A DNA stretch of 64,000 nucleotides from an uncultured Bacteroidales bacterium. Lineage in GTDB: Bacteria; Bacteroidota; Bacteroidia; Bacteroidales; B18-G4. The number at the start of each line of letters is the position of its first letter. The first letter of the stretch is position 1. The position numbers and the translations under genes were made by a program. This document shows, in pieces, positions 3,236 through 23,875 of this stretch. The notes under the pieces were generated by a model that saw only the letters and a program-made list of their open reading frames with translations, had not been told where the DNA came from and did no database searches. The stretch covers positions 99,495-163,494 of the forward strand of contig CAVWDP010000002.1 in assembly GCA_963753835.1 (NCBI GenBank), in the 5' to 3' direction.

Positions 3236-3416
3236 ATGGATTCTGTTGTCTTAAGTTAGTTAAAGATTGCCCTAAAAGGGCTGCAAAAGTATAAAAATCT
3301 GATTAATAATAAAAACGAAAAGATGTTGGATGTTGGATTTTGGATGTTGGATTAAATTTAGATGCTAAATGCTAAATGTTAAATGCTCAATGATAAATGG
3401 AACAGACCCAAACTTC

Positions 3417-4391
3417 TTATAGATTCTCAATCATCCTAAGAGCCCTTTCCCACCCTTCCTCATCCAGCCTGGCTCCGGTGATCTCAATGATTTTTCCCGC
3501 GAGAATGCCTCCAATCATAGCACATTTGTCGAGTGGCCATTTCTGGCTAAGGCCATAAAGAAAGCCAGCAGCATAAATGTCCCCGGCCCCATTGGTGTCA
3601 ACAACATCGGCATCGATGGCGGGGATGCTGTAGATCTGATCGCCGCTCCTTACCATTGAGCCATCTTTACCAATCTTTACAACGGCAATTTCACAAATTG
3701 CAGCCAGTTCGTTCAATGCATCTTCCGGGGCTTTTCCGGTAAATGATTTTGCCTCTTCCTCATTGGCAAAAACAATGTCAACATATTCTTCAACGATGTA
3801 TTTAAGGAATTCGAGGTTTTCTTCTACCACGTTATAGCTTGCCAGATCGAGAGAAACCAGCAGCCCCTTTTCTTTGGCCAGGCGAAGTGCTTTTTCAAGC
3901 AATTCATGGTTCTGAACAAGATAGCCTTCAATGTGACAATAGTCATATCCGGAGAAATGTTCTTCAGACAGGTCTTGTGCACATAATTCTATTGCAGCAC
4001 CTAGATGAGTTGCAAAAGTGCGTTCCTTGTCGGGGCTGATCAGGGCAACTGCCCTTCCGGAATGAGTATCACTTAAAAACAACACCGGATTGATATTGCT
4101 TTTTTCAAGGTCTTCCCTGAAGATCCTGCCATAATCATCTTTTCCTGTCTTACCGATAAAGCCTGTTTCGAGCCCCAACCTGGCCAGGCCATAAATGGTG
4201 TTGGCTGCTGACCCACCGGAGGCAAAAGATGACTCAAGGTGTTCGCTGGCACTTCTCACCTTGCCTGACTTTTTAATATCTACCAGTTGCATGCTGCCTT
4301 TGGGTAATTCAAGTTCCTCCAGGAGTACATCATCTTCCAGGAATACGATGATATCCACAAGGGCATTGCCAAGACCAATTATTTTTGTCAT
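3417..4391 (-). CDS. PfkB-family carbohydrate/nucleoside kinase
   Basis: ORF 3417..4418. PfkB signature DTNGAGD near the C-terminus and N-terminal GLGNALVD. Start at MTKIIGLGN (4391) is preferred; the upstream ATG at 4418 is possible. Confidence 0.8.
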   Translation of the reverse strand: MTKIIGLGNALVDIIVFLEDDVLLEELELPKGSMQLVDIKKSGKVRSASEHLESSFASGGSAANTIYGLARLGLETGFIGKTGKDDYGRIFREDLEKSNINPVLFLSDTHSGRAVALISPDKERTFATHLGAAIELCAQDLSEEHFSGYDYCHIEGYLVQNHELLEKALRLAKEKGLLVSLDLASYNVVEENLEFLKYIVEEYVDIVFANEEEAKSFTGKAPEDALNELAAICEIAVVKIGKDGSMVRSGDQIYSIPAIDADVVDTNGAGDIYAAGFLYGLSQKWPLDKCAMIGGILAGKIIEITGARLDEEGWERALRMIENL

Positions 4392-4475
4392 AATATTTAT
4401 TCTTTTTTTGGAATTCAAGTGGCAAAAATAGATAATTACAGGATAATGAGCGTTTCCGGGTAGATTTTAACCTGG

Positions 4476-4556
4476 GTCATTTCGACCACGGGGAGAAATC
4501 TGTAGCTGAATATATTTAACAGATTTCTCCTTACGCTTTGCTACAGTCGAAATGAC
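4476..4556. repeat. Nested palindromic element (GTCATTTCGA...GAGAAATCTGT...ACAGATTTCTCC...TCGAAATGAC), copy 1
   Basis: Outer 11-bp inverted repeat GTCATTTCGAC/GTCGAAATGAC and inner 12-bp inverted repeat GGAGAAATCTGT/ACAGATTTCTCC. A second copy lies at 59126-59196. Confidence 0.8.
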
Positions 4557-4568
4557 AATGTTTTTGTA

Positions 4569-5729
4569 TTATCTGGGAATAGAGGCAATATCTTCCAGGG
4601 CCGCAATGGCGGCATCAATATGTGCTTCGGTATTAAATGGCCCAATGCTGAGCCTGACAGTGCCATGGATATCGACTGTTCCAATTCCCTCATGAACCAG
4701 GGGTGCACATTGCAGACCGGTACGGCAGGCAATATTATAATCAACATCCATCATAGTACCTACATCGCCAGAGTCAAACTTATCGATATTTATACTAAGG
4801 ACCGCATTCCTGTTGGCAGGGTCATCAGCACAATATAGTGTGATATTTCCAATGTCTTTTATCCCATTTTTGAGTTTATTCCAAAGCTTCATCTCCTGTG
4901 CATGCAAGGCTTCTATACCTTGCTCCAGCACCCATTTTGTTCCTGCGAACAGCCCAGCCACACCTATGATGTTCAGGGTTCCACACTCCATCCTGTAGGG
5001 AAACTCTGCCAGGTGTGTTTTCTGTGCCGAACGCACACCCGTACCACCAAAGCGGGTTCCTTTTATGGGCAGATTTTCTGTGATATAAGAACCCCCGATT
5101 CCTGTTGGCCCCATCAGGCACTTATGGCCGGTAAAGACAAGAGCATCTATGCCCATAGCTTTTATATCAATGGGAATGGCACCCGCACTCTGGCTTGCAT
5201 CTACCACGAAATATACACCAGCCTCTTTACAGATCTTTCCGATCTCGGTAATGGGCTGCACTGTCCCAATCACGTTGGAGCTATGGTTTACAACAACCAT
5301 TTTTGTGTTCTTACGGATGGCTTTTTTAATGTCGTCGGGATGTACATAGCCATGTTTGTCGAAAGGCACATGGGTGACCTCCGCTACTCCGTTTAATGCA
5401 AGATGATGCAAGGGTCGAAGGACAGAATTGTGTTCCAACATGGTGGTGACCACATGATCGCCTTTTTCGGCCAGGCCCATAATGATCATATTGAGGGAGT
5501 CACTTGCATTATAGCTAAAGGTCAGCCTGTTCGGATCATCTCCATTGAATATCCCGGCCAGCAATTTTCGGGCATTTTGTACAATCTCTTCAGTTTCTAT
5601 GGCTGCATCAAAGCCTGAGCGTCCGGGACTCACACCTTTTGTGCGATAAAAACTGTCCATAAATTCATAAACCACTTCTGGTTTCGGAAATGAAGTGGCC
5701 GAATTATCAAGATAGATTAAGTTGCTCAT
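4569..5729 (-). CDS. Class V aminotransferase / cysteine desulfurase (SufS/CsdA-like)
   Basis: 386 aa with PLP-lysine context FTGHKCLMGP and a C-terminal active-site loop RTGLQCAP resembling the group II RxGxHCA motif. Confidence 0.8.
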   Translation of the reverse strand: MSNLIYLDNSATSFPKPEVVYEFMDSFYRTKGVSPGRSGFDAAIETEEIVQNARKLLAGIFNGDDPNRLTFSYNASDSLNMIIMGLAEKGDHVVTTMLEHNSVLRPLHHLALNGVAEVTHVPFDKHGYVHPDDIKKAIRKNTKMVVVNHSSNVIGTVQPITEIGKICKEAGVYFVVDASQSAGAIPIDIKAMGIDALVFTGHKCLMGPTGIGGSYITENLPIKGTRFGGTGVRSAQKTHLAEFPYRMECGTLNIIGVAGLFAGTKWVLEQGIEALHAQEMKLWNKLKNGIKDIGNITLYCADDPANRNAVLSINIDKFDSGDVGTMMDVDYNIACRTGLQCAPLVHEGIGTVDIHGTVRLSIGPFNTEAHIDAAIAALEDIASIPR

Positions 5730-5751
5730 TATATTTTAGTGTTTCAGTGTT

Positions 5752-7050
5752 TCAGTGTTCCAGCACGATGGCATCTGCCACGATCTCTGCCAGGGTCTTG
5801 ATCTTCACATTAAGCTTGTATGCGGCATTGGTTTGCATAAGCTGGTCAACACAATTATGACAGGGAGTTGCCACTACGGTGACCCCTGTTGCGCTGATCT
5901 GATCGGCTTTCAATTTCGCTATACCCATCCTCCGTTCATTATACTCGCTCATGGAAAGTTGTCCGCCACCACCACCACAACAAAGGTTATCTGTTCCGGA
6001 TGGTGTCATTTCCACGAAGTTCTTCACGCATTTTTCCAGGATATACCGTTGTTCTTCATAAATACCCCCACCACGGGTGAGGTTACAGGGGTCGTGCAGG
6101 GTAACCGGCTCCTGGTTCTTTTCAGGGTCAACCTTGATTCTGCCTTCACGGATATATTCTGCAAGCAATTCTACAGAGGTAATTACATCAAAGTCAAATT
6201 CTTTTTCAAGATAGTTGGGAGCTTCCCATCGGAATGCACGTGATCCATGCCCGCACTCGGCCAGGACACAACGCTTTGATCCCAGGCTCAACATCTCATC
6301 CTCCATGCGCTTCGCAATCACCTTGCCCTCTTCAAGGCTACCTGAAAAGTAGGCATAATTGGTCACATCGTACATTTTAGTGGAGATGGTCCAGCTTTCA
6401 TCAGCGGCATAAAAAACTTTGGCCATGGCTGATATAGATAGCGGAAAGAATTTCGGTTCCCTGGGATTAAGGGTATACATGATATCCTTCCCCTTTTCGT
6501 CTAACGGGATGATGGCTTTGTCGTCGTTCACTTCAAACTGCAGGTCTTCCTCAAGCCACTTCAGGGTATCCACAAATTCTTCGGTAGCGATGCCCATATT
6601 GTTTCCGGTGGAGATGGCAGTATCGACAGTCTTTTGCAGTGTTTCTGGCACATAACCCATTTCTGCAAGCATGGAGCGACCGGTCCGGATCAGGAATTCG
6701 ATATCTACGCCAACAGAGCAATGTTTATTACAGCGTCCGCACATGGTACAGCTTCCAAAAAGCAAGTCGACCATATCCTCAATGCTGGCATCATCGAGTT
6801 TCTTTGCTCCGGTGAGCCAGGGAAAGGCTTTTCCGCTTATAGTGTTATATCTCCGGTAAACAGAGGAGACGATATCCACTTTTTTAGCTGGTACAAAATG
6901 CTCATCTGGCTTCAATCGGTAATAAATGCAACTTTCGGCACAAAGACCGCAATGCACGCAGGCGTTGACATGGGTGAGCAGCTTGCTTCCGACATCCCGC
7001 TTCAGCACCTCAAGGCCTTTCCTGATTTTCTCGTCAGTGAGCTTTTCCAT
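5752..7050 (-). CDS. Fe-S oxidoreductase of the DsrK/HdrD/GlpC type (2x[4Fe-4S] plus CCG domain)
   Basis: 432 aa with two CxxCxxCxxxC motifs (CVHCGLCAESC, CTMCGRCNKHC). C-terminal CCG-domain signature CCGGGGG ... PCHNC. Confidence 0.8.
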   Translation of the reverse strand: MEKLTDEKIRKGLEVLKRDVGSKLLTHVNACVHCGLCAESCIYYRLKPDEHFVPAKKVDIVSSVYRRYNTISGKAFPWLTGAKKLDDASIEDMVDLLFGSCTMCGRCNKHCSVGVDIEFLIRTGRSMLAEMGYVPETLQKTVDTAISTGNNMGIATEEFVDTLKWLEEDLQFEVNDDKAIIPLDEKGKDIMYTLNPREPKFFPLSISAMAKVFYAADESWTISTKMYDVTNYAYFSGSLEEGKVIAKRMEDEMLSLGSKRCVLAECGHGSRAFRWEAPNYLEKEFDFDVITSVELLAEYIREGRIKVDPEKNQEPVTLHDPCNLTRGGGIYEEQRYILEKCVKNFVEMTPSGTDNLCCGGGGGQLSMSEYNERRMGIAKLKADQISATGVTVVATPCHNCVDQLMQTNAAYKLNVKIKTLAEIVADAIVLEH

Positions 7051-7053
7051 GTC

Positions 7054-7689
7054 TTACTTTTTAATGGGCTTAGGCGGCCACACCCCTCTCCAGCCATAAA
7101 AATATCCAAGGTGATAACGGGCAGCAAAGAAGTAAACAGCATGTTTCAGTTTTCCCAGGGGAAAATATAATAGCAGCAGGGAAACAATAATATAATATGC
7201 AGGGCCAAAGTTGGCATCGATATATAAGAGCATAGTGATCAACTGAAAGTCGGTAACCAGTATATTGGAAATGTAATCGTCGGGGTTTGACAAAGCACGC
7301 AGTTCATGTTTTGTCAGCCGTTTGATCAGGATGCCGATTCCGCAGATGACAGAAATACCCATTATGGCCACCACCGCCCAATTCATCCAGCCATGCAGCC
7401 AGATGTTGAAAATGTGGAGGAAGAATAATAATATAGCCAGAAAGGTACCAATATGATAAATGATCCCGGCAATGTAGGTAGGCATGTGCATGTAAGCCGA
7501 TTCTTTCACTTTCGGACTCATGGCCCCGGTGAAAGAATAGCGAACAGCTTTTCCAATATGTCCAGCGCGCCTGGCATATTCCGGAGGATTGCCAAGGCTG
7601 ATGATCCTGTAGAAGTGATAAACACAGCTAAGCAAACAGATGAAAAAGGCAATAATTGCCACCCATTGATACCAGATCATAATAAGCAA
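7054..7689 (-). CDS. NarI/DsrM/HdrE-like polytopic membrane protein (putative di-haem b quinol-interacting subunit)
   Basis: 211 aa with about 5 hydrophobic helices and several intramembrane His (YHF, IYHIG, FLHIF, WLHGW). Starts 3 nt after the downstream gene boundary, so the two look translationally coupled. Confidence 0.6.
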   Translation of the reverse strand: MLIMIWYQWVAIIAFFICLLSCVYHFYRIISLGNPPEYARRAGHIGKAVRYSFTGAMSPKVKESAYMHMPTYIAGIIYHIGTFLAILLFFLHIFNIWLHGWMNWAVVAIMGISVICGIGILIKRLTKHELRALSNPDDYISNILVTDFQLITMLLYIDANFGPAYYIIVSLLLLYFPLGKLKHAVYFFAARYHLGYFYGWRGVWPPKPIKK

Positions 7690-7693
7690 TTAA

Positions 7694-8011
7694 TTATACA
7701 CAACCATCAGGTTTTGGTAATCCTGCAACCCTGCAGGCACCCCTTGCAGGACCGAGGGGAAAGAGCTCATAGATCTCCCTGAGCCGTATCCCTGTTTCCT
7801 GGCATATGGTCCGTACCATGGGGGCCATTCCTTTTTCTTCCCAATTCTTCCGGATAATATCTACAATAGCCCAATGCTTTTCATTCATTTCTTCGATGCC
7901 GTCGTGTTTAGCGATCAGGCGTGCAACCTCTTTGTCCCAGATCTCAGGATCAGACAGGAAGCCATCACCGTCAACATCAAATGTTCTGCCTTCAATTTCT
8001 ATTGTTGCCAT
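7694..8011 (-). CDS. dsrC: DsrC/TusE-family sulfur-relay protein, two-cysteine (DsrC-type) C-terminal arm
   Basis: 105 aa ending ...GACRVAGLPKPDGCV. It has a penultimate Cys plus a second Cys exactly 10 residues upstream, the DsrC pattern (TusE has only the last Cys). Confidence 0.8.
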   Translation of the reverse strand: MATIEIEGRTFDVDGDGFLSDPEIWDKEVARLIAKHDGIEEMNEKHWAIVDIIRKNWEEKGMAPMVRTICQETGIRLREIYELFPLGPARGACRVAGLPKPDGCV

Positions 8012-8030
8012 AAGGTTTGGTTATAAATGG

Positions 8031-8276
8031 TTATTCGTTTTCTTCTTCAAACTTATCGATGATCTCATCGAGGCTGAGGGGAGTGTTAGGAAGCACAAAA
8101 TCAGGACAAAAGCCCAGGGATTTCTTGGTATTGAATCGTGTGCAATTGCTCCACACCTCTTCATTTTTCCTGCACCACAATTCCAGGTATTCTTCCTTCT
8201 TTTTAACGTCAGGTATAACAATGCTTGTTGATACCATCCTGCAGGTATTAATATTCGGGCAAAGATTTTCAGACAT
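8031..8276 (-). CDS. Small Cys-rich acidic-tailed protein, function unknown (first gene of the DsrC operon)
   Basis: 81-aa ORF with 5 Cys (CPNINTC, WC, NC, FC) and an EEENE tail. It sits 19 nt upstream of dsrC on the same strand. No family recognised. Confidence 0.5.
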   Translation of the reverse strand: MSENLCPNINTCRMVSTSIVIPDVKKKEEYLELWCRKNEEVWSNCTRFNTKKSLGFCPDFVLPNTPLSLDEIIDKFEEENE

Positions 8277-8452
8277 AGGTTCAGTTTAAGAGGGCGAAAA
8301 TTATAAAAAATTCGCTATCTATATAGCTTAATATGTGTGGTTTTTAGTAATCTATATTGCTTTTAAATAGTAATAAGGGTACAGGGTACAGGGTTCAGGG
8401 TTTTGGAAAATCTCCTATATTTGTTTCACACATTAACCTAAAATCTACACTT

Positions 8453-9547
8453 ATGAAAAAAGTTTCCTTGTTAATCTTAAGTCTGATCATTGTGAATACG
8501 TGTTTTTCGCAGGATTATCTGGCCCGTGCCCGGGCAGATAAAGAATGGGGATATATTAATTATGAAGGTAAGTGGGTGATAAACCCTCAGTTTGCACATG
8601 TAAATGATTTCAGTGAAGGCCTTGCTGCCGTTGAGAAAGACGGTGAGTGGGGATTTGTTGATAAGGCAGGGAATTTCAAGATCAATCCCCAGTTCGATCA
8701 TGCAAGGGATTTTCATAATGGTCTTGCTGCAGTGAAGAAAGATAAAGAGTGGGGTTATGTTAACAGTGAGGGCAAGTGGGTGATCAACCCACAATTTGAA
8801 GATGCCGAGGATTTTGTTGGTGCCCTGGCTCCTGTAAATTCGGGAGGTGACTGGGGTTTTATTAATCCAAAAGGCACCTATGTTATCAATCCACAGTTCG
8901 ACAAAGTGAATCAATTTACAGAAAAGCTTGCTCCGGCACTAAAAGACAAACAGTGGGGCTATATTGACAATAAGGGAAATTGGGTGATCAATCCTCAATT
9001 TGAAAAAGCGGAGGCTTTTAATAATGGCATTGCCATGGTACGTAAAGGTGGAGAATGGGGATTTATTGATACCAAGGGAACCTATGTGATCAACCCACAA
9101 TTTGATAATGCCAGGGAATTTAGTGAGGGCCTCGCTGCAGTAAAAAAAGGGAAAGAATGGGGCTATATCGACAATAAAGGGAATTATATCATCAATCCCC
9201 AGTTCCTCAAAGCCAGGGATTTTACAGGCCAGCTGGCCGGAGTACTGAAAGGCAAGGAATGGGGTTTTATCGACGCTAAAGGCAATTATGTTGTGAACCC
9301 ACAGTTTACTGATGTGGAAGATTTCTCAAATGATAAAGCAGCTGTAAAGAAAGAGAAGGATTGGGGCTATGTGAACAGCAAGGGCGAATGGATTGTGAAC
9401 CCTCAATTTGAAAAAGCCCGCCCATTTGGGAAATCACGTGCAATGGTAAAAAAAGGTGGCGAATGGGGCTGGATCGATAATAAAGGCAAGTATGTGATCA
9501 ACCCACAATTCCCGAATGCATATCCATTTTCGAGTGTAGCCTGGTAA
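8453..9547 (+). CDS. WG-repeat (KWG-type) secreted protein
   Basis: Start at MKKVSLLILSLII (internal Met of ORF 8357..9547). Ten tandem 34-aa units of the form EWGYIDxKGxWVINPQFxxAxxFxxGLAxVKK. Confidence 0.8.
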   Translation: MKKVSLLILSLIIVNTCFSQDYLARARADKEWGYINYEGKWVINPQFAHVNDFSEGLAAVEKDGEWGFVDKAGNFKINPQFDHARDFHNGLAAVKKDKEWGYVNSEGKWVINPQFEDAEDFVGALAPVNSGGDWGFINPKGTYVINPQFDKVNQFTEKLAPALKDKQWGYIDNKGNWVINPQFEKAEAFNNGIAMVRKGGEWGFIDTKGTYVINPQFDNAREFSEGLAAVKKGKEWGYIDNKGNYIINPQFLKARDFTGQLAGVLKGKEWGFIDAKGNYVVNPQFTDVEDFSNDKAAVKKEKDWGYVNSKGEWIVNPQFEKARPFGKSRAMVKKGGEWGWIDNKGKYVINPQFPNAYPFSSVAW

Positions 9548-9702
9548 TATAGATGTTGGATTATGGATTATGGATCCTTCGACTACGCTCAGGACAGGTT
9601 GTTGGATGAAAATTTAATTATTCACTTCACCATTCTTATTCTTATTCCTTGCTTTGCAACCCGAAGTCTGAAAGACGAAGGGGTGTTCCTCTGTTCTCTA
9701 TT

Positions 9703-10029
9703 CTACTGGATACCTTTAAAAATATCCTGAATAAAGTTTCCTATCAGGGGTACGGGTTTGGTCTCTCCCTGGGCTGCAGAGATAAGTCCCATGATCCAGA
9801 GCACAAAAAGAAAAATGGCTGCCAGCCAGCCTATGATCGGGATCCAGAAGATCACCCATCCGATAATCCCAATGATATTTATTCCGAGCGACTGACGGAG
9901 GTGGTAAACGGCAAGCTCCGACTTGTCGTTTTGATACAAAACAAATGCAATGATCCAGCCGATAAGGGAAAGATAGCTTACTATGGCGATCAGTTGGCCA
10001 TTTGCTGAGGGTTGTTGTTGTTGTTCCAT
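9703..10029 (-). CDS. Small integral membrane protein (DUF4870-like topology)
   Basis: 108 aa with three hydrophobic segments. The overlapping plus-strand ORF 9649..10008 looks non-coding (charged, low complexity). Confidence 0.55.
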   Translation of the reverse strand: MEQQQQPSANGQLIAIVSYLSLIGWIIAFVLYQNDKSELAVYHLRQSLGINIIGIIGWVIFWIPIIGWLAAIFLFVLWIMGLISAAQGETKPVPLIGNFIQDIFKGIQ

Positions 10030-10101
10030 GGGTTTTGGTTTATTGTTAATATCGTTAATACGAAGATATTAAAAATTCACCCAACACTCAACACCTAACA
10101 C

Positions 10102-10866
10102 CTAAAACCTTAATGATAAACAGCTCAGCCCTCCATCCAGCTTCCTGAACTCAGACATGTCAAGAACAATAGTTTCATAACCGGCCGACACTATGTTTTT
10201 TAATGTTACAGGATATCCATCAGGTACAAGTACCGTCCCATTCAACCAAAGAGAATTGGCCGCATAAGATTCATTGTCAGGTACTGGAATGATGTCGAAA
10301 TGATGGAAAGCAGGATGTTTATCTAAGGCATCCACGGCAAGCAATATATTGTTTTCAAGGTATGAAACCCCTGACTTAAGATGCAACATGCCCGATATTT
10401 CAACAATCACAGCTGTCATACCATTTTTTTCAAGGATACTGATCAATTGTTCAGCTCCTTCAATATTTGTCCGATCAGAGAGCCCGATAAAAAAATGATC
10501 CCCACACATCATCACATCTCCGGCCTCCAGTGTTCCTGGTGAACGGATGTATTCAATATTATTATAAAACCTTTTAATGCTTGTCTCCATGCCATATACT
10601 TCTCCTCTGCGTGATGGGGCGCCCGGATTTGTAATTACCGCAACACTTTTACATAGTAATGCAGTGTCTTCAACAAAGGTGCTGTCGGGGTATTCAATAT
10701 CCGGAGGAAGAAGCGTAACATCAAGTTTGCAAGCCTGAAGTGCGTTCACATATTGTTCGTGTTGCAACAAGGCAAGATAAAAGTCCGGGATCCCCAAACC
10801 TGAAGAACTTAGCCCCTCGCTTATATTTTCACAGGGGGTGCGTACAATGGCATTGGTAAAATGCAT
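10102..10866 (-). CDS. Dimethylarginine dimethylaminohydrolase / amidinotransferase-fold enzyme
   Basis: 254 aa starting [11 protein letters not shown], with [13 protein letters not shown] and a C-terminal catalytic-Cys context [11 protein letters not shown] typical of the DDAH/arginine deiminase fold. Confidence 0.75.
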
Positions 10867-10916
10867 GAGGTAAAGTTAATAAATATAGGCGTTGGGCATT
10901 GGGCGTTGGGCAATGT

Positions 10917-10974
<58 letters not shown>

Positions 10975-11127
10975 GAAAATGACCAACAAATTTAAAGAAC
11001 TTTTTAAGCGAATAATTCATCCAGCATCCAACACTCAACATACAACCCTGCCTGCCGGCAGGCAGGACCCAACACCCAACATCTTCATGGTTTTGCATTC
11101 ATCGGCATATTATTGTATATTTATTCC

Positions 11128-12135
11128 ATGGCGCAGGTACCCGATTTCCAGAAAACACTTTTTGAAGAGATACGAGAACGTCTACCAACAGATGCTTCTT
11201 TTGTTCATGAGATCGCCGAATTGCTTGGCATTAGCTACGATAGTGCCTACCGACGTATTCGTGGAGAAAAAGCACTGGATATCCAGGATCTTTATATCCT
11301 TGCTGACTCATATAGCCTTTCGATCGACACCCTTTTCAAACGCCATGGAAATAAAATAGTTTTTGATTATTTCACCCTTGAGCCGGAAAAACTTGGGATG
11401 AAAGAATGGCTGGGCCTCATCCTGGCAGATACAAAAGAAACTGCACAGGCTTCCAATAAGCAGATTGTTTATGCTGCCAAAGATCCGCCAGTGTTTCATA
11501 ATTTTCAGATCCCTGAACTTGCAGCATTCAAGCTCTTTTTCTGGCAAAAGACCCTCTGCCAGTTCCCTGAATTTAAAGACAAGAAACTGCGCCTGGATGA
11601 TGCTGATATGAAGATCATCAATATGGGAAGGCAACTTTTATCTGTTTCCAACAAGATCCCAACCATTGAGATCTGGAACGAAGACACCTTTAACATTACA
11701 CTCAGGCAGATAGAGTATTATAAGGTATCAGGCTATTTTGAGAAAGAAGATGATGTTATAAATCTATGTGATAAACTTGAAAAATGGGTAGAGCATATCA
11801 GAAAGCAGGCCGAGTGCGGTTTTAAGTTTCTCTATGGTGAACCGGCTGAAGGCCTGGAAAATACTTTCAGTATGTATGAAAATGAAGTAGTGCTGAACGA
11901 CAATACAATTCTGGTTAGGAGGGATGAAACCACAACAGTGTATCTCACTTTCAATACACTGAGTCTTTTAATTACCAAGAGCCCCGCATTTTGCCTGAAC
12001 GTAGATAACTATTTTAACCAGCTTATCAGAAAATCCAACCAGATCAGTGTGTCCGGATCCAAGGAAAGAAATCGTTTCTTTAATAAACTCCTTCATACTA
12101 TTGAAGGATTCAGGAAAAGGATGGAGCAGCAATAG
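11128..12135 (+). CDS. Helix-turn-helix transcriptional regulator (BetR-like N-terminal HTH, uncharacterised C-terminal domain)
   Basis: ATG at 11128 (MAQVPDFQKTL); the tracked ORF start at 11113 is TTG. The N-terminal segment IAELLGISYDSAYRRIRGE is a classic HTH. Confidence 0.65.
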   Translation: MAQVPDFQKTLFEEIRERLPTDASFVHEIAELLGISYDSAYRRIRGEKALDIQDLYILADSYSLSIDTLFKRHGNKIVFDYFTLEPEKLGMKEWLGLILADTKETAQASNKQIVYAAKDPPVFHNFQIPELAAFKLFFWQKTLCQFPEFKDKKLRLDDADMKIINMGRQLLSVSNKIPTIEIWNEDTFNITLRQIEYYKVSGYFEKEDDVINLCDKLEKWVEHIRKQAECGFKFLYGEPAEGLENTFSMYENEVVLNDNTILVRRDETTTVYLTFNTLSLLITKSPAFCLNVDNYFNQLIRKSNQISVSGSKERNRFFNKLLHTIEGFRKRMEQQ

Positions 12136-12381
12136 TATTCCTTTATTTATTTTTTGAATAATTTCCCAGAGCAGGCAAATTAAGCCCTCCGATTAGTAAA
12201 TTTTGCAATTCATCATACCGAGGATACTTCCGGATTTGCAAAAACTGCAAATTTCAAGACTTCCCTCCCGCAAATCAATTTTGTTTGACATGCGTACCCC
12301 ATTAATTTTGAGGCATTAAGGCAAACCAAACGCATAACATTAATCTGGCTCGAGAAGATTTAAGAATCAAATTCAGCACAG

Positions 12382-13449: not shown

Positions 13450-13478
13450 CACATGAGCGCATCATTTAACTATGAATC

Positions 13479-15599: not shown

Positions 15600-15632
15600 T
15601 TTCTCTCATTATTAAACTTTAATTATAAAAAC

Positions 15633-15956
15633 ATGGAAAAGAAATCTAAAGCCCCACTCATATACGGTTATGCCGTATGCCTTGTAGCGGTAATCACATT
15701 TCTGATTGCCATTGCCGGGATTATTTTTGCTGTGATGGACCTGGGCGATCCATTATATGCCGGCAATAATTACAATAAGGAAAGTATAGCCTCATTTGAA
15801 AACTATAAAATGGATATGTTAAAATCCCAGGGTGATAAGGAGACATGGTCTCCTGATGACGCAACCCTGAAAGCCATGTATGAGGCTGAAAAGGATGACC
15901 GTATACGCAGGGTAAACATAATTCAATGCGCAGTATATACATTCATGGCATATTGA
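15633..15956 (+). CDS. Small membrane protein, function unknown (C-terminus possibly frame-shifted)
   Basis: 107-aa ORF with an N-terminal TM helix. Just past the stop, another frame encodes a hydrophobic stretch plus HWSWMRRLGKKAERINN, which suggests a lost C-terminal TM. Confidence 0.45.
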   Translation: MEKKSKAPLIYGYAVCLVAVITFLIAIAGIIFAVMDLGDPLYAGNNYNKESIASFENYKMDMLKSQGDKETWSPDDATLKAMYEAEKDDRIRRVNIIQCAVYTFMAY

Positions 15957-16118
15957 TCATTATCTGTCTGTATCTTATTCTTTACGCACTGGAGCTGGAT
16001 GCGCAGACTTGGCAAGAAGGCGGAGCGTATTAATAATTAATATTCTTAATGAACACAAGGCAGGCTTTCATTGTTTATGTATAACTTTATAATACCGCGA
16101 AACCGGAACCATTATAAC

Positions 16119-16638
16119 ATGAGAAACATGAAAGCCAGCCTTTTCATTTTGTATTTACTTTTAGTTATACCAGCTTCATTTTCTCAGGAAGCGGCTGAAG
16201 AACATGATCATAATCATGATCATATAAGCCATGGACACTTTGAAATGAAAAATGAAGTTGGTGGAGCCATTGGTGCGGTTTTTATGTTGGAAGAGCAGGG
16301 GACGTCTTTGGGATTTCATTTACATTATTATCGGAGACTGCCCGGTAAAATGAAGCGTTTTGGTATTTCGCCTGGTCGTTGCATTCGTTTTTGGTGATCA
16401 CAGGCATTATACACTACATTTAATGATGGTGTATAGCCCTATCCATGGATGGTGGGTCAGTGCCGGTCCGGGCCTTACTTATATAGATCATGATAGTGAA
16501 TTTGTGGGATCTGCCCATATTGAAACAGGCTATGAGTTTGATCTTGGAAAGTTGCATTTAGGGCCGGTCGTGGAGTATTCCTGGGCAAAAGAAGGGCAGC
16601 ATATTATGCTTGGCCTGCACCTGGGAGTGCCTTTTTAA
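16119..16638 (+). pseudogene. His-rich secreted/outer-membrane small protein, single frame break
   Basis: ORFs 16071..16397 and 16360..16638 overlap in different frames. The signal peptide is MRNMKASLFILYLLLVIPASFSQ, followed by a HDHNHDH tract. The second part ends in the beta-strand-like LGLHLGVPF. Confidence 0.5.
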
Positions 16639-16697
16639 CAAAATACATGTCCACAGCACCTTTATGCTTGGCTTCGATCTTCCCCCTGTGGACACAT

Positions 16698-18602
16698 TCA
16701 AACTGTCTTCCTGACCAGATTATAGGTAGTACCCGAGATATTCACTTCTCCGATTTCCCCACTTGATTCCATTCTAGAGGCGATGTTCACGGTATCTCCC
16801 CAAATATCATACTGGAATTTTTTAATCCCAACGATCCCCGCAACAACAGGTCCTGTATTTATGCCGATCCTGATCTCAAAGTAAGGAAGGCCCTTGCTGG
16901 TCCTGTTTTCCTTTAGCGCAAGCATAAAATCACGAATTTCCATGGCTGCGCGTACTACATCAGAAGGGTTTGTTTTGTTGGGGATTGGCAATCCTCCTGC
17001 ACACATATAGGCATCACCGATGGTTTTGATCTTTTCTATATTGTAATTGGCAATGATGTTGTCAAAAGCTTTAAAGCAATGATCGATCTCTGCCACCAGT
17101 TCATCAGGGCTCAGCACCTCTGCCATCTTTGTGAAACCTGCGAAATCAGTGAACAAAACAGTCACCATCTCAAAGCTCCTTGCTTTGGAGCTCCCTTTTT
17201 CTTTAAGCTCCTCAGCAGTTTCTTCAGGGAGAATATTGAGCAGCAGCTTATCCGACTTCTCCTTTTCATCCTGGATGATCACATTCTTTTCTGCCAATGT
17301 ATTCCTTGTCCTTCGCACGTATCGGTAGCGGTGCAAGAGTAAGAGAGCTAACAGGAGAATTCCCCCACCCAGTCCTGCCACAGAATTTCTGATGATCTTT
17401 TGTCGCCTGATCATGAGGTCCTGTATCTTCGCGTCTTTATTGAGCAGGTCGATCTCTGCCTTCACCTGTTCATCTTCAAATTCATTGATTTTTTCCAGGG
17501 CCTTGTTTTTTTCCGTATCAAGGAGGCTCAGGCGCTCTTCATTATATTTTTCCTTGTACAAGTAGGCATTTTCAAAGTCACCAAGCCTGAAATATATATC
17601 CGCTAGTCCATCGTAAATTTCCAATTGATTTTGCCTGGCACCAAGACTGTTAGCCATGCTTTCAGCAAGCAGGTAATTTTTAAGTGATTTTTTATAAAAT
17701 TCCTGGTCTCTGTAAATTTCGGCAGTGGTAATAAAATAAACAAGCTTGCCTATCTCATCATTGGTCTGCAGGGCAAGCGTATATGATTGCTCGGCAAATG
17801 AAAGGGCCAGGCCGAATTTTTGCATATTTTTGTAGGTGATTGCCATATTTGACAGGGTGATCGACATGTCAACCTTATTATCCAGGTCTTTTTGTATCAT
17901 AAAAGCCTTGGTATAATATTCCAGGGCCTTTTCGTGCTCATCAAGCTCAGAGTAAACAGTTCCGATATTTCCATAGTTCTTCACCAGCCGACTGTGATCT
18001 TCATTTTTTTCATTGATGATGATGGCCTGTTCATAGTAGTATATGGCCTGATCATTCATTCCCATCTCTGAGTACCTGGACCCAAGGCTGTTGTAAACTT
18101 TGGCCATGCTCAATGAATCTTCTGTCTGGATAAAAATTTCAAGGGCCTTCATTAAGTATTCCAGGGAGAGCTCCAGCTGTCCCATGATGGAATAAACGAT
18201 CCCGTAATTATTATAGATGTTGCCCTGATCTTCCTTCAGGTCATATTTTATTGCCATCGACAGGGCAGAATCATACATCATGATGGCAGAATCATATTGT
18301 CCGTTCAGGTCATGACTGATGCCCTGGTACATGATCATTCGTGGGACTACCCTGTGATATGAAGAAGAAAGGGCGATATCCAATACACGCTTTGCATCCT
18401 CCATCGACTGATCGGGATCATTATACAGATCGTTATTAATACAGTGGCATAATTCAAAGAAGGTGTTGGTATCAATATTTCCACCCTCCAGTTCCCTGAA
18501 CAGGCTATCACTGAAATGCCGGTTCTGGGCACTTAGGGTACCGGCCAGACAAAAAAGTGAAAAACCGATAAAGAAAATTGAAAAAAACCTCAACATCTGC
18601 AA
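16698..18602 (-). CDS. Class III adenylate/guanylate cyclase with N-terminal TPR sensor region and one TM helix
   Basis: 634 aa with TPR-like repeats, a TM segment (GLGGGILLLALLLL), and a CYC domain (VLFTDFAGFT, IKTIGDAYM, GINTGPVVAGIVG, YDIWGDTVNIASRMES). Confidence 0.85.
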   Translation of the reverse strand: MQMLRFFSIFFIGFSLFCLAGTLSAQNRHFSDSLFRELEGGNIDTNTFFELCHCINNDLYNDPDQSMEDAKRVLDIALSSSYHRVVPRMIMYQGISHDLNGQYDSAIMMYDSALSMAIKYDLKEDQGNIYNNYGIVYSIMGQLELSLEYLMKALEIFIQTEDSLSMAKVYNSLGSRYSEMGMNDQAIYYYEQAIIINEKNEDHSRLVKNYGNIGTVYSELDEHEKALEYYTKAFMIQKDLDNKVDMSITLSNMAITYKNMQKFGLALSFAEQSYTLALQTNDEIGKLVYFITTAEIYRDQEFYKKSLKNYLLAESMANSLGARQNQLEIYDGLADIYFRLGDFENAYLYKEKYNEERLSLLDTEKNKALEKINEFEDEQVKAEIDLLNKDAKIQDLMIRRQKIIRNSVAGLGGGILLLALLLLHRYRYVRRTRNTLAEKNVIIQDEKEKSDKLLLNILPEETAEELKEKGSSKARSFEMVTVLFTDFAGFTKMAEVLSPDELVAEIDHCFKAFDNIIANYNIEKIKTIGDAYMCAGGLPIPNKTNPSDVVRAAMEIRDFMLALKENRTSKGLPYFEIRIGINTGPVVAGIVGIKKFQYDIWGDTVNIASRMESSGEIGEVNISGTTYNLVRKTV

Positions 18603-18818
18603 GAATTATTTATGCTGTTATTTCAAAAGTAAGTATTAAACATACAACACATTCATTTTGATCATTTGTACGAATATTTTGCCTCATAGTTATGATAAGA
18701 TGAACAAATAAATTTTGCTATCGTTTATTAAACAGCAAAACAACAGCCAATAGCTCATTTGCTTTGACTGGATGCATTTGTTATATTTGATTAATATTCA
18801 TATTAAACCCGGGAACCA

Positions 18819-19451
18819 ATGAAAAACCTATTTAGAGTATTCAGTTTATTTGCAATGGTATTTTTGACTGGAATTAGTGTATACGGACAGGAATATGACT
18901 GTAATACTGAAAACAACCAATTTAGAACCAAGAAAAACCAATGGATCATTAAGAATCCAGACAAGCCCTTTTCTGCATCTGATATTTCAGCCTTCAATGG
19001 TTTGTTTTATTACCCAACCGACTGTAAGTATGTATATAAAGGAAAATTGACACGCAATGAGCCCATGAAAATTGTCAATGTAGCAACAAGCAAAGGCGGA
19101 ACAATGCAGCTTTATGATTATGGTACGGTAAGTTGTCAGATTGGGCAGGAAGAATATAATCTGACTGTATATAAAAACATTGATATGCCGGAGTTCAGCA
19201 ATTCCCCGGAAACATTATTTATTCCATTTATGGACGAAACCTCAGGCCCACCGCCCAAAACTACTTTTGCTTCCGGGCGTTACCTTATCGTTCAGGCTCC
19301 TGCCAGTGGAAACAAGCTTGTACTGGACTTTAACAGGGCAACAAACCCTTTCGAAAACTATAACAGCAATTATCCCACTTTGGTGGTTCCCGATCCAAAT
19401 GTTATCCGTGTTCCCCTGGATACTGGTGAGAGAAAGTATGAAGACCGGTAA
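18819..19451 (+). CDS. DUF1684-like secreted protein
   Basis: 210-aa ORF with a signal peptide. The FNGLFYYPTD...YVYKGKL pattern is recalled from DUF1684 proteins. Assignment is from memory only. Confidence 0.5.
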   Translation: MKNLFRVFSLFAMVFLTGISVYGQEYDCNTENNQFRTKKNQWIIKNPDKPFSASDISAFNGLFYYPTDCKYVYKGKLTRNEPMKIVNVATSKGGTMQLYDYGTVSCQIGQEEYNLTVYKNIDMPEFSNSPETLFIPFMDETSGPPPKTTFASGRYLIVQAPASGNKLVLDFNRATNPFENYNSNYPTLVVPDPNVIRVPLDTGERKYEDR

Positions 19452-19495
19452 ATTGTAAAATATTTGGTACTTTGTCAGCAGAAAAACGGAAACAA

Positions 19496-20033
19496 ATGAA
19501 GCGTTTTCTCACAATTATAGTATTTCTGATTCTGCTCACTTCATGTGATCATGTGATCTTTTTGGAGCCTCAACCCCGAAAAGTCAAGACCATTAAAAGA
19601 AATACCTACCTCACTTCAGGGGATATATCTGGATGGTGATGGAGATACGCTATATGTTCATGAGCACTCATTTGCCTATAGTTCTGATGAATTTCATTCC
19701 CCGGATAAGATGCATCTTTCTGATTCTTCAGTATTGAAGGAATATTATGACCATTATTTTTATAGTACACCGCTGTTCCTTGAAGAGGGGAAGTTCTGGG
19801 TCAGTTATATCCTACGCTTAAATGAAGATGGTGCTGGCTTTGAACTATATGCTATGGATCCGGGTGATGTTGTTAAGCTGGCTAAACTTCAGGAGATCAC
19901 TTCCAAGATACGTGATATAGAGGGAGATAATCAAAGTTATTATCTCTTCAATCCTAAAAAGAAACACTATAAAAAGATCATATCCGATACTATTTTCTCG
20001 AAGATGATCTCTTTTAGGAAAATAGGGAATTAG
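19496..20033 (+). pseudogene. Lipoprotein, function unknown, frame break in an A4 run
   Basis: ATG at 19496 gives MKRFLTIIVFLILLTSC (lipobox) and terminates at TGA near 19637. The frame of ORF 19710..20033 is open back to the A-run at 19595-19598 (ATTAAAAGAAAT). One extra A would join the two. Confidence 0.55.
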
Positions 20034-20121
20034 GAAATAATAAGCCCCATGGGGTGAAATTCTAAATTCTAATAACTAAATTCTAAATAAATTTCAAATT
20101 CTAAATCTCAAAATTTAAAAA

Positions 20122-20145
20122 CCCCCTCGCCAACAGGAGAGGGGG
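20122..20145. terminator. Bidirectional terminator-like hairpin between convergent genes
   Basis: CCCCCTC-GCCAACAGGA-GAGGGGG, a 7-bp GC stem preceded by an A-run. The same module occurs inverted at 23575-23598. Confidence 0.5.
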
Positions 20146-20190
20146 TGAGGTGCATTTAGATTTATTTCAGAATAGTTCCCAGAGCATGAA

Positions 20191-21808
20191 TTATTTCTGC
20201 ACTGGTTCTGTAAGCGGATCTTTTTCCTTTACTGGAGTTCCTTTATAAGAAATTCGTTCAGCACGTGGAACGCCTGTTTTGAATCCCAGATCACTAGATT
20301 TTCCATAAAGTTCAGGATGCAGGTAGAGTCCTTTTTCGTGAGCGGGTTTATCCTCTACAGGCTTGATACGATGCTCTTGAGCATATGGATCATTCCTGAC
20401 CCCGGTGACCTGCCAGCTGACTTTAATATTCGGTTTGTTGGTCTGTATAGTAAACTCGTTACCGGAGATCTCTTCTTTCACAATAGCCTGTGCGAATTCA
20501 CCCAAAACAGTAAGTTGATACCTGAAATCAATATTCACAGCATTGAAATACGAAGGCAAGGCAACAGTAGCCATACCGTCAACATCTGTTACAACATTAC
20601 CATTATAGATATTCATCATATCAGGGCTTTCAACAAAGCTGTGTATGAGGAATTTATTTGCCGGATCTTGCGGGTGGTCGATCTTAAAGCTACCTGCAGC
20701 CTTTCCGAGTGTACCACTTACATAGACATCACCTGAAAACCAACCGGCATAATTATTTGCAGCTGCCCCCATGTCATCACCGTATACCGCCATACTATAA
20801 GTAGAACCTGATTGCCCCATGCCAGCAAAATAGCCACCGTAGTTATTATTGGTACCGCCACCACCTTCACCAAATACTCCTTCATTAAACATTGAACCGG
20901 TAGAGTATGCATGACCAAGAACTCCATAGGAAATATCAGAGGTATTGTTTTCTGACCAGCCAAATAAGGCAGGTGCGAGATTTTGTGTTGGGCTGTACAT
21001 CACACCCAGATCTGTTCCATTAGCACCAGCTGAGTTTTGTTCAACCACATGGGTCTTAACCAGGGGATCAATTACCCCGATACCGACCTTGTTGCCTTTC
21101 CATGCCATGGTCTGGTTACCGTTTTCATAAAGGAACACAGCCTGGGAGGCGGGGATTCCAGTAAAGCCATGCAACATTGCGCTGCCTGTTTCAGTGCATG
21201 GCAGAGACCACGTATTGGTTCCCGACCATCAGCCGATCGTAAAGTATGCATGAGATAGAGCATTCAAGTTTGTATGCGTCTCCGCGGACATTAATAACGT
21301 CCAAAGTGCTGGCAGGGCTATCTGTACCGATGGCCTACAAATCCGGTGTTAAAATAGATATCTCGGACCATTTGATAGCCAGGGGCTGCTTCCGCCACCA
21401 CCTGAACTGCGCTGCATACATGGCAAAGGGCACTGTGGCCAGTTTGCTCATACCCATGTCGATGAAGGTATTTCCTCCATTAGGGTCAATCTCGGTTTTG
21501 ATATAAAAATCGCCGGTGGCCCAGGGGATGGTTAGAAAATTCCCTGACAATACTGCTCCATCACCGATCATGAAGTGGAACAAACCGTAAGAGTTTGTTA
21601 ATGGTGTGTGTTTTTCTGAATAGATCATTGTTCCCGGAAGTGGACCCTGGTAAACTGACATTCGGGCACTGATCATTGTGTTGGCGATGGGAGTTCCAGC
21701 GCCGTCGCGGGCCATGCCCTGGTAGTCGATCATCTGCGGTACCTGGCCGCTTGCAATCATAGCAAAGCTAACTGCTGCTATAAACATTAATAGTCTAATC
21801 TTTTTCAT
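20191..21808 (-). pseudogene. Bacteroidota cell-surface protein (VPQMIDYQG N-terminal repeat family, Gly-rich middle, conserved C-terminal domain), at least 3 frame breaks
   Basis: ORFs 21335..21808 (signal peptide plus N-domain) and 20191..21177 (C-terminal KIDHPQDPANKFLIHSFVESPDMMNIYNG...). The gap at 21178-21420 encodes GGGGSSPWLSNG, DIYFNTGFVG and GIGTDSPASTLDV in three different frames. Confidence 0.65.
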
Positions 21809-21825
21809 AGGTTTATTTTTTTTGG

Positions 21826-22332
21826 TTACATCCTGATTAATTTGATTGATTTAAATTGTTTGTCAGTGCCGGAGGCTGTAATAATCATCAGGTTATACAT
21901 TCCCGGCGGTAAATTACTCAGGTCGATGACCTCCTGATAGGAGTTTTCTCCTGACAACTTTTCACTGATCAATGCCTTTCCGCTGAAATCATACAGCGTA
22001 TAGCTGACCCCTGTAGGCAGTTCAAATGTTGCATTTAGCTGAACATAATCACTGCATGGGTTGGGATAAACAAGGAATTCACCTTCCTCATTTATTTCCG
22101 TAACGCTTACCGGCAGGTCGTCGAGTTGTTGAAATCCCGAACTGAGGATAATCGCTGGATGGTAGGTTGTTGCCAGAGGACCTGCCTGGCCGATAGTCCA
22201 GGAAGCCTCAATGACAGCCGTTTCGTAATAGCCGCCTCCTGCACTGAACACATGTCTGGGCAGCTCCTGGGAGAACCCTGTGAAGGCAAGAGAAACAGCA
22301 ATTACCACGAGTAATGGTTTTAAGTGTTTCAT
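21826..22332 (-). CDS. Small secreted protein with T9SS C-terminal sorting domain
   Basis: 168 aa with a signal peptide. C-terminal LVYPNPCSDYVQL...LPPGMYNLMI...KLIRM is the T9SS type A CTD pattern. Confidence 0.7.
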   Translation of the reverse strand: MKHLKPLLVVIAVSLAFTGFSQELPRHVFSAGGGYYETAVIEASWTIGQAGPLATTYHPAIILSSGFQQLDDLPVSVTEINEEGEFLVYPNPCSDYVQLNATFELPTGVSYTLYDFSGKALISEKLSGENSYQEVIDLSNLPPGMYNLMIITASGTDKQFKSIKLIRM

Positions 22333-22622
22333 ATAATGAATGGTTTTAAAGGATCAAGTTGTGATCTGGCAGGAACTCAAAATAGTAAGACCCGTCAACC
22401 TTATTATAATGAGATAGGGTAAATGTACAAAATAAGTATATGGGATGCAAATAATTATAATACCGGGTACTACGTATTTGGTATTAGGTATTACGACGGA
22501 TATCGATTAGAGTAATGATAAAAATTTGAAGGTTTATATATTGAGGGGAATATATTTTCGTAATACGTAGTTCCTGATACCTAATACGATAATAACTATC
22601 TTTATCCGGCAATCAAGCTGAT

Positions 22623-23208
22623 TTGACAGCAGAAGATAACCATAAGCCCAATCTGGATCCATCACGCTGGCTCAGCGAGCATGGAGATTACCTTTTTTCG
22701 TATGCTTTTTCAAGGATCAGCAAACGGGAACAGGCCGAGGACATCGTACAGGAAACCCTTTTATCGGCTTACCAGGCCCGTGATAATTTCCGGGGAGGCA
22801 GTTCAGAAAGGACCTGGCTGGTCTCCATCCTGAAAAGAAAGGTGATCGATTATTATCGTAAGCAGTCGAGGAATCCGGAATCACTCACCAGAATCATTTG
22901 AGATGCCTTTTCATCAGGGAGGCATGCATGACGGTACCTGGCTCAGCGATCATGCCCCTTCCCCATGGGATGATGATGCTTTGAAAGATGATGATGGTGT
23001 CCTGATGGAGGTGATACAATACTGCATATCACTTTTAGGCGCAAAGATGGCCGCCACCTTCAGCATGAAAACACTGGAAGATATTTCAAGTGAAGAAATT
23101 TGTAAGGAATTAGGAATATCGGAGTCCAACTTATGGGTGCTCTTGCACAGGGCAAGGCTTCAGCTTCGCGAATGTGTTGAAAATAAATGGTTTAAAGAAT
23201 TGAAATGA
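22623..23208 (+). pseudogene. ECF-type sigma-70 factor, single frame break between regions 2 and 4
   Basis: ORF 22623..22901 (AEDIVQETLLSAY...SSERTWL, region 2) and ORF 22903..23208 (region 4 HTH ICKELGISESNLWVLLHRARLQLR) are in different frames. The second frame is open from 22846. Confidence 0.65.
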
Positions 23209-23489
23209 TAGAGAAGGCAAAAATATGGATGAACAATGCGATGCATCGCCTGATGCTCTCGTGCGATAGAGCGACTTTCTTAATAACCAAAAAGGAATAT
23301 CAAAAACTTACCTGCAAGGAAAATGCCCAGCTTAAACTGCACCTGATGGGATGCAAATTTTGTCGTGCATTCAAGGACCAGAATGCGATCTTATCTGATC
23401 AGCTCAGAACCCTTGTGGAAAATCCATCCAGGGCTGAACTTTCTGAAGAAAAGAAAAAAGAGATCGCGGAAACATTAAATGCTCAGTAG
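23205..23489 (+). CDS. Putative anti-sigma factor (small, Cys/His motif)
   Basis: 94 aa with an ATGA start/stop overlap with the sigma gene. HLMGCKFCRAF resembles a zf-HC2-type motif. Confidence 0.45.
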   Translation: MIEKAKIWMNNAMHRLMLSCDRATFLITKKEYQKLTCKENAQLKLHLMGCKFCRAFKDQNAILSDQLRTLVENPSRAELSEEKKKEIAETLNAQ

Positions 23490-23875
23490 TTGCACAAGGG
23501 TAAAATTCTAAACTCTAAGCCCTAAACTCTAAACAAACTTCAAATTACAAATTTCAATGCACCTCACCCCCAAACCCCCTCTCCTGAAGGCGAGGGGGCT
23601 TTATTATGTTGAGAATTGGATTTTGAAGTTTGGAGTTTGGGCTACCTGGCCTTAAGAATGAAATAATCATTTCCATTCTCCTGATGATTGCTGTCCTTAT
23701 CGCAATCTTTTCAGCTGCTTCCCGGCCCTTTATATCCACACCCTGCAGAAATGCGGGGTTTTTTTCATTGTGTTAAAGATATGTTAAAAACCAGTAAGCC
23801 AGCGTATTAAGAATTACTTTCACAGCGTCATGTCACGATTAAATTCTAAAAGGGATGAACTAAAACAAAAATAAG

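Follow-up and report, generated by a model that had tools for sequence, protein, structure and literature searches.

Why should the spacers between ordinary chromosomal genes hold tandem repeats whose step is almost always seven bases? The question is raised by a 64,000-nt piece of the chromosome of an uncultured Bacteroidales bacterium (contig CAVWDP010000002.1, positions 99,495 to 163,494; hereafter the window), spacers making up ~23% of its length. An initial annotation, made by a model from the bare sequence and a list of its open reading frames, had noticed degenerate heptanucleotide arrays between the genes and offered, as one speculative reading, that they are slippage-prone arrays of promoter-like half sites. 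We found that arrays of period 7 occur in excess in the window, stay within non-coding DNA, change by whole units, have very diverse unit sequences, appear regardless of the type of spacer and are present in relatives. The reading that we favor, with a probability of about 0.7, is that they are heptanucleotide simple-sequence repeats (SSRs) that are remodelled as whole units are gained or lost, and that are tolerated outside genes only.

Period 7 dominates the tandem repeats of the window

Tandem Repeats Finder assigned a period of 7 to 37 of its 67 rows for the window, and several more rows, of period 14 or 21, lay over the same arrays. In parallel, we used a finder of our own, which treats all periods from 4 to 12 alike, sets a minimum of 12 net matches at lag p and excludes arrays that are truly of a shorter period. 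Period 7 accounted for 17 of the arrays that it detected and period 8 for one, the other periods giving no array; in all, 17–29 period-7 arrays were obtained with our own finder. As controls, we used dinucleotide-preserving shuffles of the spacers and a 50-kb stretch of E. coli K-12. No array was found by the same finder in the E. coli sequence, and no period-7 array was formed in the shuffled spacers; the sole array remaining after shuffling had not been shuffled at all, because the crude gene caller from which the coding and spacer fractions were taken had placed it within a gene. The worry that the parsing had been cherry-picked, voiced in the initial annotation itself, is answered by this unbiased scan and by its empty controls.

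All the tracts listed in that annotation were present, in place or within 1–2 bases, and the tracts that it called A and F, in the 13 copies of a dispersed repeat described below, can be parsed as it had proposed. Its statement that every tract follows a 7-nt period went too far in that a few arrays of period 8 also exist (Table 1), but the dominance of period 7 holds. Likewise, the tracts are real within the span that it gave, up to 23548, but the arrays go on to ~51,460, and the tract that it placed at 9551-9571 exists but has a somewhat different true extent (Table 1), with an in-register continuation after a 25-base insertion. The autocorrelation that it had recommended, run here on the window, gave a lag-7 base identity of 0.301 in spacers versus 0.250 in coding DNA (z = 8–11 against shuffles). 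Further identity peaks at lags 14 and 21 were seen in the spacers only and were missing from coding DNA.

Sixteen of the 17 period-7 arrays fall within the crude spacers. The seventeenth (8376-8402), scored as coding, is upstream of where a WG-repeat gene probably starts, and the spacer that holds it is conserved in relatives, so that 17 of 17 arrays can be regarded as non-coding. With their head-to-tail units of 7 bases (at least about 3 per array), their excess above chance, their confinement to non-coding DNA and the whole-unit length changes described below, these arrays have the properties of heptanucleotide long SSRs. They do not behave as phase-variation repeats, in that every one of them is located outside reading frames.

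The signal is shared by close relatives

Relatives were sampled through loci syntenic with the window, namely L003, L005/L006, L007 and L008 around a class V aminotransferase gene, and L090 (taken from the L003 genome) and L091 around another gene of the window. In the close relatives L003, L005, L006 and L007, with aminotransferases 87–90% identical, the lag-7 z ranged from 4 to 10, and in L090 and L091 it was 5.5 and 6.6; these two loci have 4 and 5 heptamer arrays, respectively, and no octamer array. The comparison with related taxa that the initial annotation had called for thus extends the signal to all six of these loci. No lag-7 signal was detected in L008 (77% protein identity).

As wider relatives, we used 80 metagenome loci anchored on thymidylate synthase (755 kb; 89–93% protein identity), which contained 54 heptamer and 36 octamer arrays, any other period being represented by at most 7. 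The heptamer array density of the window is ~4 times that of these 80 loci. Octamer arrays were observed in L017, L032, L033, L073 and other thymidylate-synthase loci, GGTCTTGC and GTTATGCG being examples. The ratio of heptamer to octamer arrays was 24:3 in the lineage of the window versus 65:37 in the others, which weakly suggests that periods 7 and 8 segregate by lineage (Fisher p = 0.011); heterogeneity among those other loci was not significant. The arrays are a trait of this lineage of uncultured Bacteroidales as a whole, and not of particular genes.

Arrays differ by whole units

Indel spectra across related loci were too noisy below ~97% identity, and most of the near-identical pairs had no indels, so that the pair L044/L047 was the one informative comparison. 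These loci are 98.9% identical over 2.9 kb, and the only indels longer than one base between them are two of exactly 14 bases, each located in a heptamer array. Upstream of the DsrC-like operon, an ACCCTGT-type array with conserved flanks in four species has 3–4 units in the window, L003 and L005, and ~12 units in L007. This expanded array, at L007 2968-3055, is the counterpart of the window array at 8376-8402. Among copies of the dispersed repeat, the left tract, measured from its T run to a conserved anchor, has a length of 27, 34, 35, 41, 42 or 43 bases, which amounts, give or take 1 base, to 4, 5 or 6 units. The spacer between the PfkB kinase and EF-G-like genes carries GATGTTG and GCTAAAT units in the window and related but different units, GATTATG and GTGAAAT, in L003; no arrays are present there in L005 and L007. 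Arrays at orthologous and paralogous positions and in the L044/L047 pair differ by whole units, and to this extent the "slippage-prone" half of the earlier suggestion is supported.

Units are diverse and indifferent to spacer type

As many as 82 canonical units were counted among the 121 arrays of the window and its relatives. Array densities were similar in tandem, divergent and convergent spacers. The window had 1.7, 1.2 and 1.5 arrays per kb in these three types, respectively, and the relatives had 0.46, 0.40 and 0.64. TAACTGA, CCCCAGT, TTGGTCA, CAACAGT and the known Xanthomonas and Nostoc units did not occur in tandem in the window. A reading of the arrays as G-quadruplex-type elements was also considered and rejected: only the array at 8376-8402 has a G3 run in every unit, and the other arrays lack G3 runs.

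A proposed origin through slippage and decay

According to the reading that we favor, any short non-coding word could be amplified, whatever the sequence of the unit. Replication slippage or unequal alignment would be the likely mechanism, as judged from the whole-unit indels, and the resulting arrays would then decay through point mutation, hence their degenerate look. Arrays would survive only in non-coding DNA because a step of 7 bases breaks the reading frame. Some also travel within the dispersed repeat, or stand on both sides of GC-rich terminator-like hairpins as the arms of a foldback. Most arrays are probably neutral or nearly so.

Several observations weigh against this explanation. 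The evidence leaves the step of 7 bases itself unexplained, and pure slippage predicts neither the complementary arms around hairpins nor the asymmetry of G and C between strands: one strand of the arrays is nearly free of C, the asymmetry being 0.71 in arrays versus 0.30 in other spacer DNA (p ~1e-10, with the repeat copies counted individually). Moreover, the pairs L005/L006 and L052/L055, both 99.9% identical, showed no array length difference at all, so the arrays are not hypermutable on short time scales. Finally, a TTTAGAR unit family is kept at an orthologous convergent spacer in three species (the window, L090 and L091) whose flanking protein is 69–78% identical, and such persistence suggests either constraint or continual renewal. 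The unexplained seven, the bias against C, the pairing around hairpins and this long persistence leave some limited room for a structural or single-strand-binding role, and rather less for the mobile spread of a subset of the arrays.

A broader possibility, speculative and in our opinion unlikely, is that the step size of tandem duplication is a heritable property of the replication or repair machinery of a lineage, 7 in this clade and also 8 in sister Bacteroidales. If so, a comparison of the replisome, primase and mismatch-repair proteins of heptamer-rich, octamer-rich and repeat-free relatives could reveal what sets the number seven.

Hairpins, foldbacks and a possible structural role

The alternation of tracts with GC hairpins that was pointed out in the initial annotation is correct at many loci, and many arrays adjoin GC-rich hairpins that resemble terminators. 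At 23490-23650, a GC hairpin is preceded by an A/C-type array and followed by a complementary one of T/G type, the whole being predicted to fold into a single long stem (fold z = -4.6), and the same array-hairpin-array layout, again with one long predicted stem, is found at 20040-20190 (RNA fold z = -3.1) and recurs in the orthologous convergent spacer of L090. These foldbacks argue for regarding the arrays as functional single-stranded or structural elements, which might act as extended flanks of bidirectional terminators, or as loading sites for a protein with a footprint of 7 bases (for instance one with a cold-shock domain) that modulates termination or mRNA stability. The near absence of C from one strand agrees with such a function, as does the conservation between species of array positions and, at one locus, of the unit family as well, and the Bacillus protein CspB is reported to bind heptamer repeats with one protein per heptamer (PMC4679880). 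In this case, the arrays may have been retained as single-stranded arms lacking C, with the function of tuning bidirectional terminators.

However, the extreme diversity of the units speaks against such a role, and many arrays are solitary, distant from hairpins or located in divergent spacers. Arrays are also present or absent at orthologous spacers without any change in the neighboring genes. The rule that A/C-type arrays stand 5' and T/G-type arrays 3' of the GC hairpin was tried and rejected, as it fits only the dispersed family and the two foldbacks and fails in relatives, where the counts are 3:3 and 2:2. On balance, a structural role for the arrays in general seems unlikely to us, and heptanucleotide SSRs shaped by slippage remain the preferred explanation.

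A dispersed composite repeat and a possible mobile origin

Between 27.3 and 51.5 kb, the window contains 13 copies of a modular repeat of ~250–300 bases, all in a single orientation. The repeat consists of a terminator-like hairpin with a T run, GATATCT/GAAGTTT units, GC hairpins and CAAACTC/CAACACT units, in this order, so that T/G-type heptamers are on the left, GC hairpins in the center and A/C-type heptamers on the right. No match to this composite repeat was found in Rfam or among plasmids, and no copy was present in 88 related loci. Two blocks of 277 and 130 bases are 100% identical between 32594-33062 and 37751-38177, at spacings of 5157 and 5115 bases, and represent a recent segmental duplication that includes one composite copy. 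The copies keep their orientation even though the flanking genes change strand at ~31.5 kb, which suggests local duplication or a replication-related bias and not a link with transcription.

A 25-base word, found three times in the window (Table 1), sits within heptamer arrays in all three cases, preceded by GA and followed by T, and does not occur in the 88 related loci. As its excision restores the register of the array, it has the look of a very small insertion with arrays as its target. A scan of genome collections for CTGATATTTGAAGTTTGAAG gave only two matches, both unrelated, one of them being TTTGAAG x4 next to a tRNA gene of a Bacteroidales genome bin.

A family of hairpins resembling repetitive extragenic palindromic (REP) sequences, in which GCACCTCACCCCC is followed by CCCCCTCTCC, a loop and GGCGAGGGGG, was observed at 20100-20150 (- strand), at 23560-23601 (+ strand) and in L090 at ~11675-11725. 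The GCACCTCACCCCC hairpin has a terminator-like score; its orientation is reversed in the orthologous convergent spacer of L090, and it is absent from L091.

From these data it could be argued that small mobile foldback elements, such as miniature inverted-repeat transposable elements (MITEs) or REP sequences and bacterial interspersed mosaic elements (BIMEs), have the arrays as their arms, and that the 7-base register spreads with the elements. The 13 composite copies in one orientation, the foldbacks sharing a hairpin at 20.1 and 23.6 kb, with the opposite orientation in L090, and the 25-base word inserted in three arrays would all fit such a scheme. Inverted heptamer arms are present at 20.1 and 23.5 kb as well as within the composite family, although as arrays whose number varies and not as fixed termini. 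Against the scheme, an alignment of 12 composite copies showed ragged and modular ends, with neither flanking target-site duplications nor terminal inverted repeats of fixed sequence. No REP-associated transposase was found in the window, where no search aimed at one was made. The composite family is missing from the 88 related loci, which still have heptamer arrays, most arrays outside the 27–52 kb region have unrelated units and no partner, and length differences occur at fixed orthologous positions. Mobility would at most explain the copying of some arrays and not the period of 7, and we consider it improbable as the general origin of the register.

The arrays do not look like promoters

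The consensus of housekeeping promoters in Bacteroidota is TTTG, followed after 19–21 bases by TAnnTTTG. According to the initial annotation, many units carry TTG or TTTG, the -33 element, and the arrays could therefore be slippage-prone stacks of promoter-like half sites; such stacks would tune transcription. Over all arrays, both words are indeed enriched in the unit consensus (TTG, 0.59 vs 0.28 expected; TTTG, 0.38 vs 0.11), and the composite repeat has a TTTG every 7 bases along its left tract. However, the enrichment stems mainly from copies of this one family: among arrays outside it, about 3–4 of 11 carry TTG (hand count), near the expectation. The window has 22 intergenic TAnnTTTG boxes, mostly 5–90 bases upstream of gene starts, and none of them is in an array, which means that no array stands between recognizable promoter elements. 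Convergent spacers, which need no promoter, hold arrays as often as the others, and the units are too diverse for a single binding motif. In the PfkB/EF-G spacer, a promoter-like block, TTTTTATACTTTTGCA, lies outside the arrays and is kept in four species, of which only two have the adjoining heptamer arrays; on the strand of the downstream gene, the array of this spacer is CA-rich and has no TTTG. A promoter role for the arrays was thus not supported, and stacks of half sites are a very improbable explanation.

In a scan for E. coli-type promoters, TTGATA-17-GATATT matches were obtained within arrays at 27303-27331, 29200-29228 and 31043-31071. These matches arise because of the 7-base period (3 x 7 + 2), and the promoter type is the wrong one for Bacteroidota.

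An artefact of assembly, sequencing or parsing can be practically dismissed, given the unbiased scan and empty controls described above and the finding of the same signal in independent ENA, NCBI and JGI contigs, whose record names point to different assemblies.

Positions of the arrays and other features of the window

Table 1. Tandem arrays, composite repeat copies and 25-base words in the window.
Feature	Position	Strand	Remarks
GATGTTG x4.4 array	3322-3352		spacer between PfkB stop and start of EF-G-like gene
TAAATGC-type x6 array	3353-3399		also scored as period 21
Period-8 array	5734-5763		octamer
AGGGTAC x3.8 array	8376-8402		GGG every 7 bases; upstream of DsrC-like operon
GATGTTG GATTATG GATTATG GA array	9552-9574		register resumes at 9600, past 25-base insertion
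CACCCAA/CACCTAA array	10069-10110		convergent spacer
GGCGTTG x3.6 array	10888-10911		divergent spacer
GTAGGCR x8.3 array	10917-10974		cleanest array, 98% matches
CATCCAG/CAACACT and ACCCAAC heptamers	11014-11083		flanking GC hairpin CCTGCCTGCCGGCAGGCAGG (11047-11066)
Period-8 array	19541-19558		octamer
Foldback	20057-20190		convergent spacer; AAATTCT-type array 20057-20119 followed by GC hairpin 20121-20146 and by ATTTAGA-type units rich in T
GGTATTA x4 array	22466-22493		divergent spacer
Foldback	23503-23640		AAACTCT/CAAATTT arrays 23503-23557, terminator-like GC hairpin 23572-23601, complementary TTGGAGT array 23616-23640
Composite copy 1	27270-27560	+	6 GATATCT/GAAGTTT units; CAAACTC/CAACACT units on right
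Composite copy 2	29186-29500	+	left tract of 5 units
Composite copy 3	31028-31340	+	6 units, one more than copy 2
Composite copy 4	32786-33100	+	5 units
Composite copy 5	37943-38240	+	5 units; within 100% segmental duplication of copy 4
Composite copy 6	39196-39436	+	6 units broken by 25-base word; CATCCAT array 39405-39435
Composite copy 7	40437-40660	+	6 units
Composite copy 8	42351-42615	+	6 units; CCAACAC array on right, 42580-42601
Composite copy 9	43691-44000	+	6 units; CTAAATC and ACTCAAC arrays at right
Composite copy 10, partial	45501-45593	+	core only
Composite copy 11	47396-47500	+	short; contains 25-base word
Composite copy 12	49794-49990	+	6 units, TTTGATA x5.7
Composite copy 13	51411-51482	+	4 units, truncated
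25-base word TCCTTCGACTACGCTCAGGACAGGT / TCCTTCGACTWCGCTCAGGACAGGT	9575-9599	+	3 matches in all, 0 expected
25-base word	39227-39251
25-base word	47405-47429

The genes among which the arrays are found are ordinary chromosomal ones. Pfam searches identified an EF-G-like GTPase, a PfkB kinase, the class V aminotransferase, the DsrC-like operon and thymidylate synthase, and several proteins carry a type IX secretion sorting domain. The closest named relatives of the aminotransferase, 90% identical, belong to metagenome-assembled genomes labeled "Bacteroidales bacterium". A scan of the window against Rfam detected a single tRNA-Asn gene and no further family.

Other features were observed in the course of this work. 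At 8521-9519, there are 9–10 tandem repeats of 102 bases (34 residues), which are WG beta-repeat units (Pfam PF14903, E = 3e-112); this coding repeat is an ordinary one with no connection to the heptamers. On the - strand, 20191-21177 and 21335-21808 appear to be one gene split in two reading frames, the 328-residue frame of the pair having homologues of ~530 residues in relatives; a frameshift, a pseudogene or a sequencing error could account for the split. The reading frames at 23876-24124 and 24132-25265 seem to be split in a similar way. Finally, a palindromic spacer element, GTCATTTCGAC...GTCGAAATGAC, is present at 4476-4560 and 59126-59180 of the window, and also at L003 11170-11290 and L007 10290-10330; its location in L003, the PfkB/aminotransferase spacer, is the same as in the window.

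Comparison with known repeats

Heptanucleotide repeats are the commonest class of longer SSRs in prokaryotes, and the lineage of the window offers an unusually clean case, with a period that is almost purely 7 and close relatives that either have no arrays or mix heptamers with octamers. As its dozens of units are unrelated, whatever in the process is independent of sequence can be told apart from anything motif-specific, and the clean period, the diverse units and the contrasting relatives together make the question "why seven?" approachable by comparative genomics. In practical terms, such arrays inflate spacers, create spurious open reading frames and weak matches to E. coli-type promoters, and are a source of strain-level length markers in metagenomes.

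Repeats of this kind have been described before. The survey of Mrazek, Guo and Shah (2007), as relayed in later papers (PMC4679880, PMC4692102), identified heptanucleotides as the most abundant longer SSRs in many prokaryotes and proposed polymerase slippage as their origin, the rich genomes being those of Burkholderia, cyanobacteria, actinobacteria and Xanthomonas. The arrays of the window resemble this class of long SSRs with units of 5–11 bases in being tandem repeats of 7 bases, above chance, mostly non-coding, and sporadic and lineage-specific. They differ in their host, an uncultured Bacteroidales clade that, to the extent of our search, is not among the described cases, and in that the sister lineages of the window also carry many octamer arrays.

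Rehm et al. (2015) reported heptamers that occupy conserved inter-gene positions in Xanthomonas and Nostoc, with variation in length and sequence and with inverted pairs; in Xanthomonas, they occur between the same genes of two species, with much variation in both respects (PMC4692102). Like these GGGAATC and GGGGAYT repeats, our arrays occupy the same positions between genes in relatives, vary in length and sequence and form some inverted pairs in convergent spacers (PMC4692102), and the AGGGTAC array at 8376-8402 shares with GGGAATC a G3 every 7 bases. Whereas Xanthomonas and Nostoc have one dominant G-rich unit capable of forming quadruplexes, the window has dozens of unrelated and mostly AT-rich units, with only one array of the G3 type.

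TAACTGA repeats were reported by MacGregor (2015) in Beggiatoaceae, cyanobacteria and five Bacteroidetes, with other heptamers in the spacers of some Bacteroidetes (PMC4679880). The arrays of the window are, like these and the short tandemly repeated repetitive (STRR) sequences of cyanobacteria, heptamer tandem repeats in spacers (PMC4679880), but the named units are not found in tandem in the window and the arrays show no concentration immediately upstream of start codons. The 13-copy composite repeat, for its part, recalls REP/BIME sequences and MITEs in being a modular mosaic of GC hairpins and motifs in spacers, often beside terminator-like hairpins, and departs from them in having arms of tandem heptamers in variable number in place of fixed inverted repeats, with no target duplication or defined ends seen. 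The kind of repeat is therefore already known. The present case stands out by its host clade, by a period that is nearly always 7 even though the units number in the dozens and are unrelated, and by the presence of sister lineages in which octamers are mixed in.

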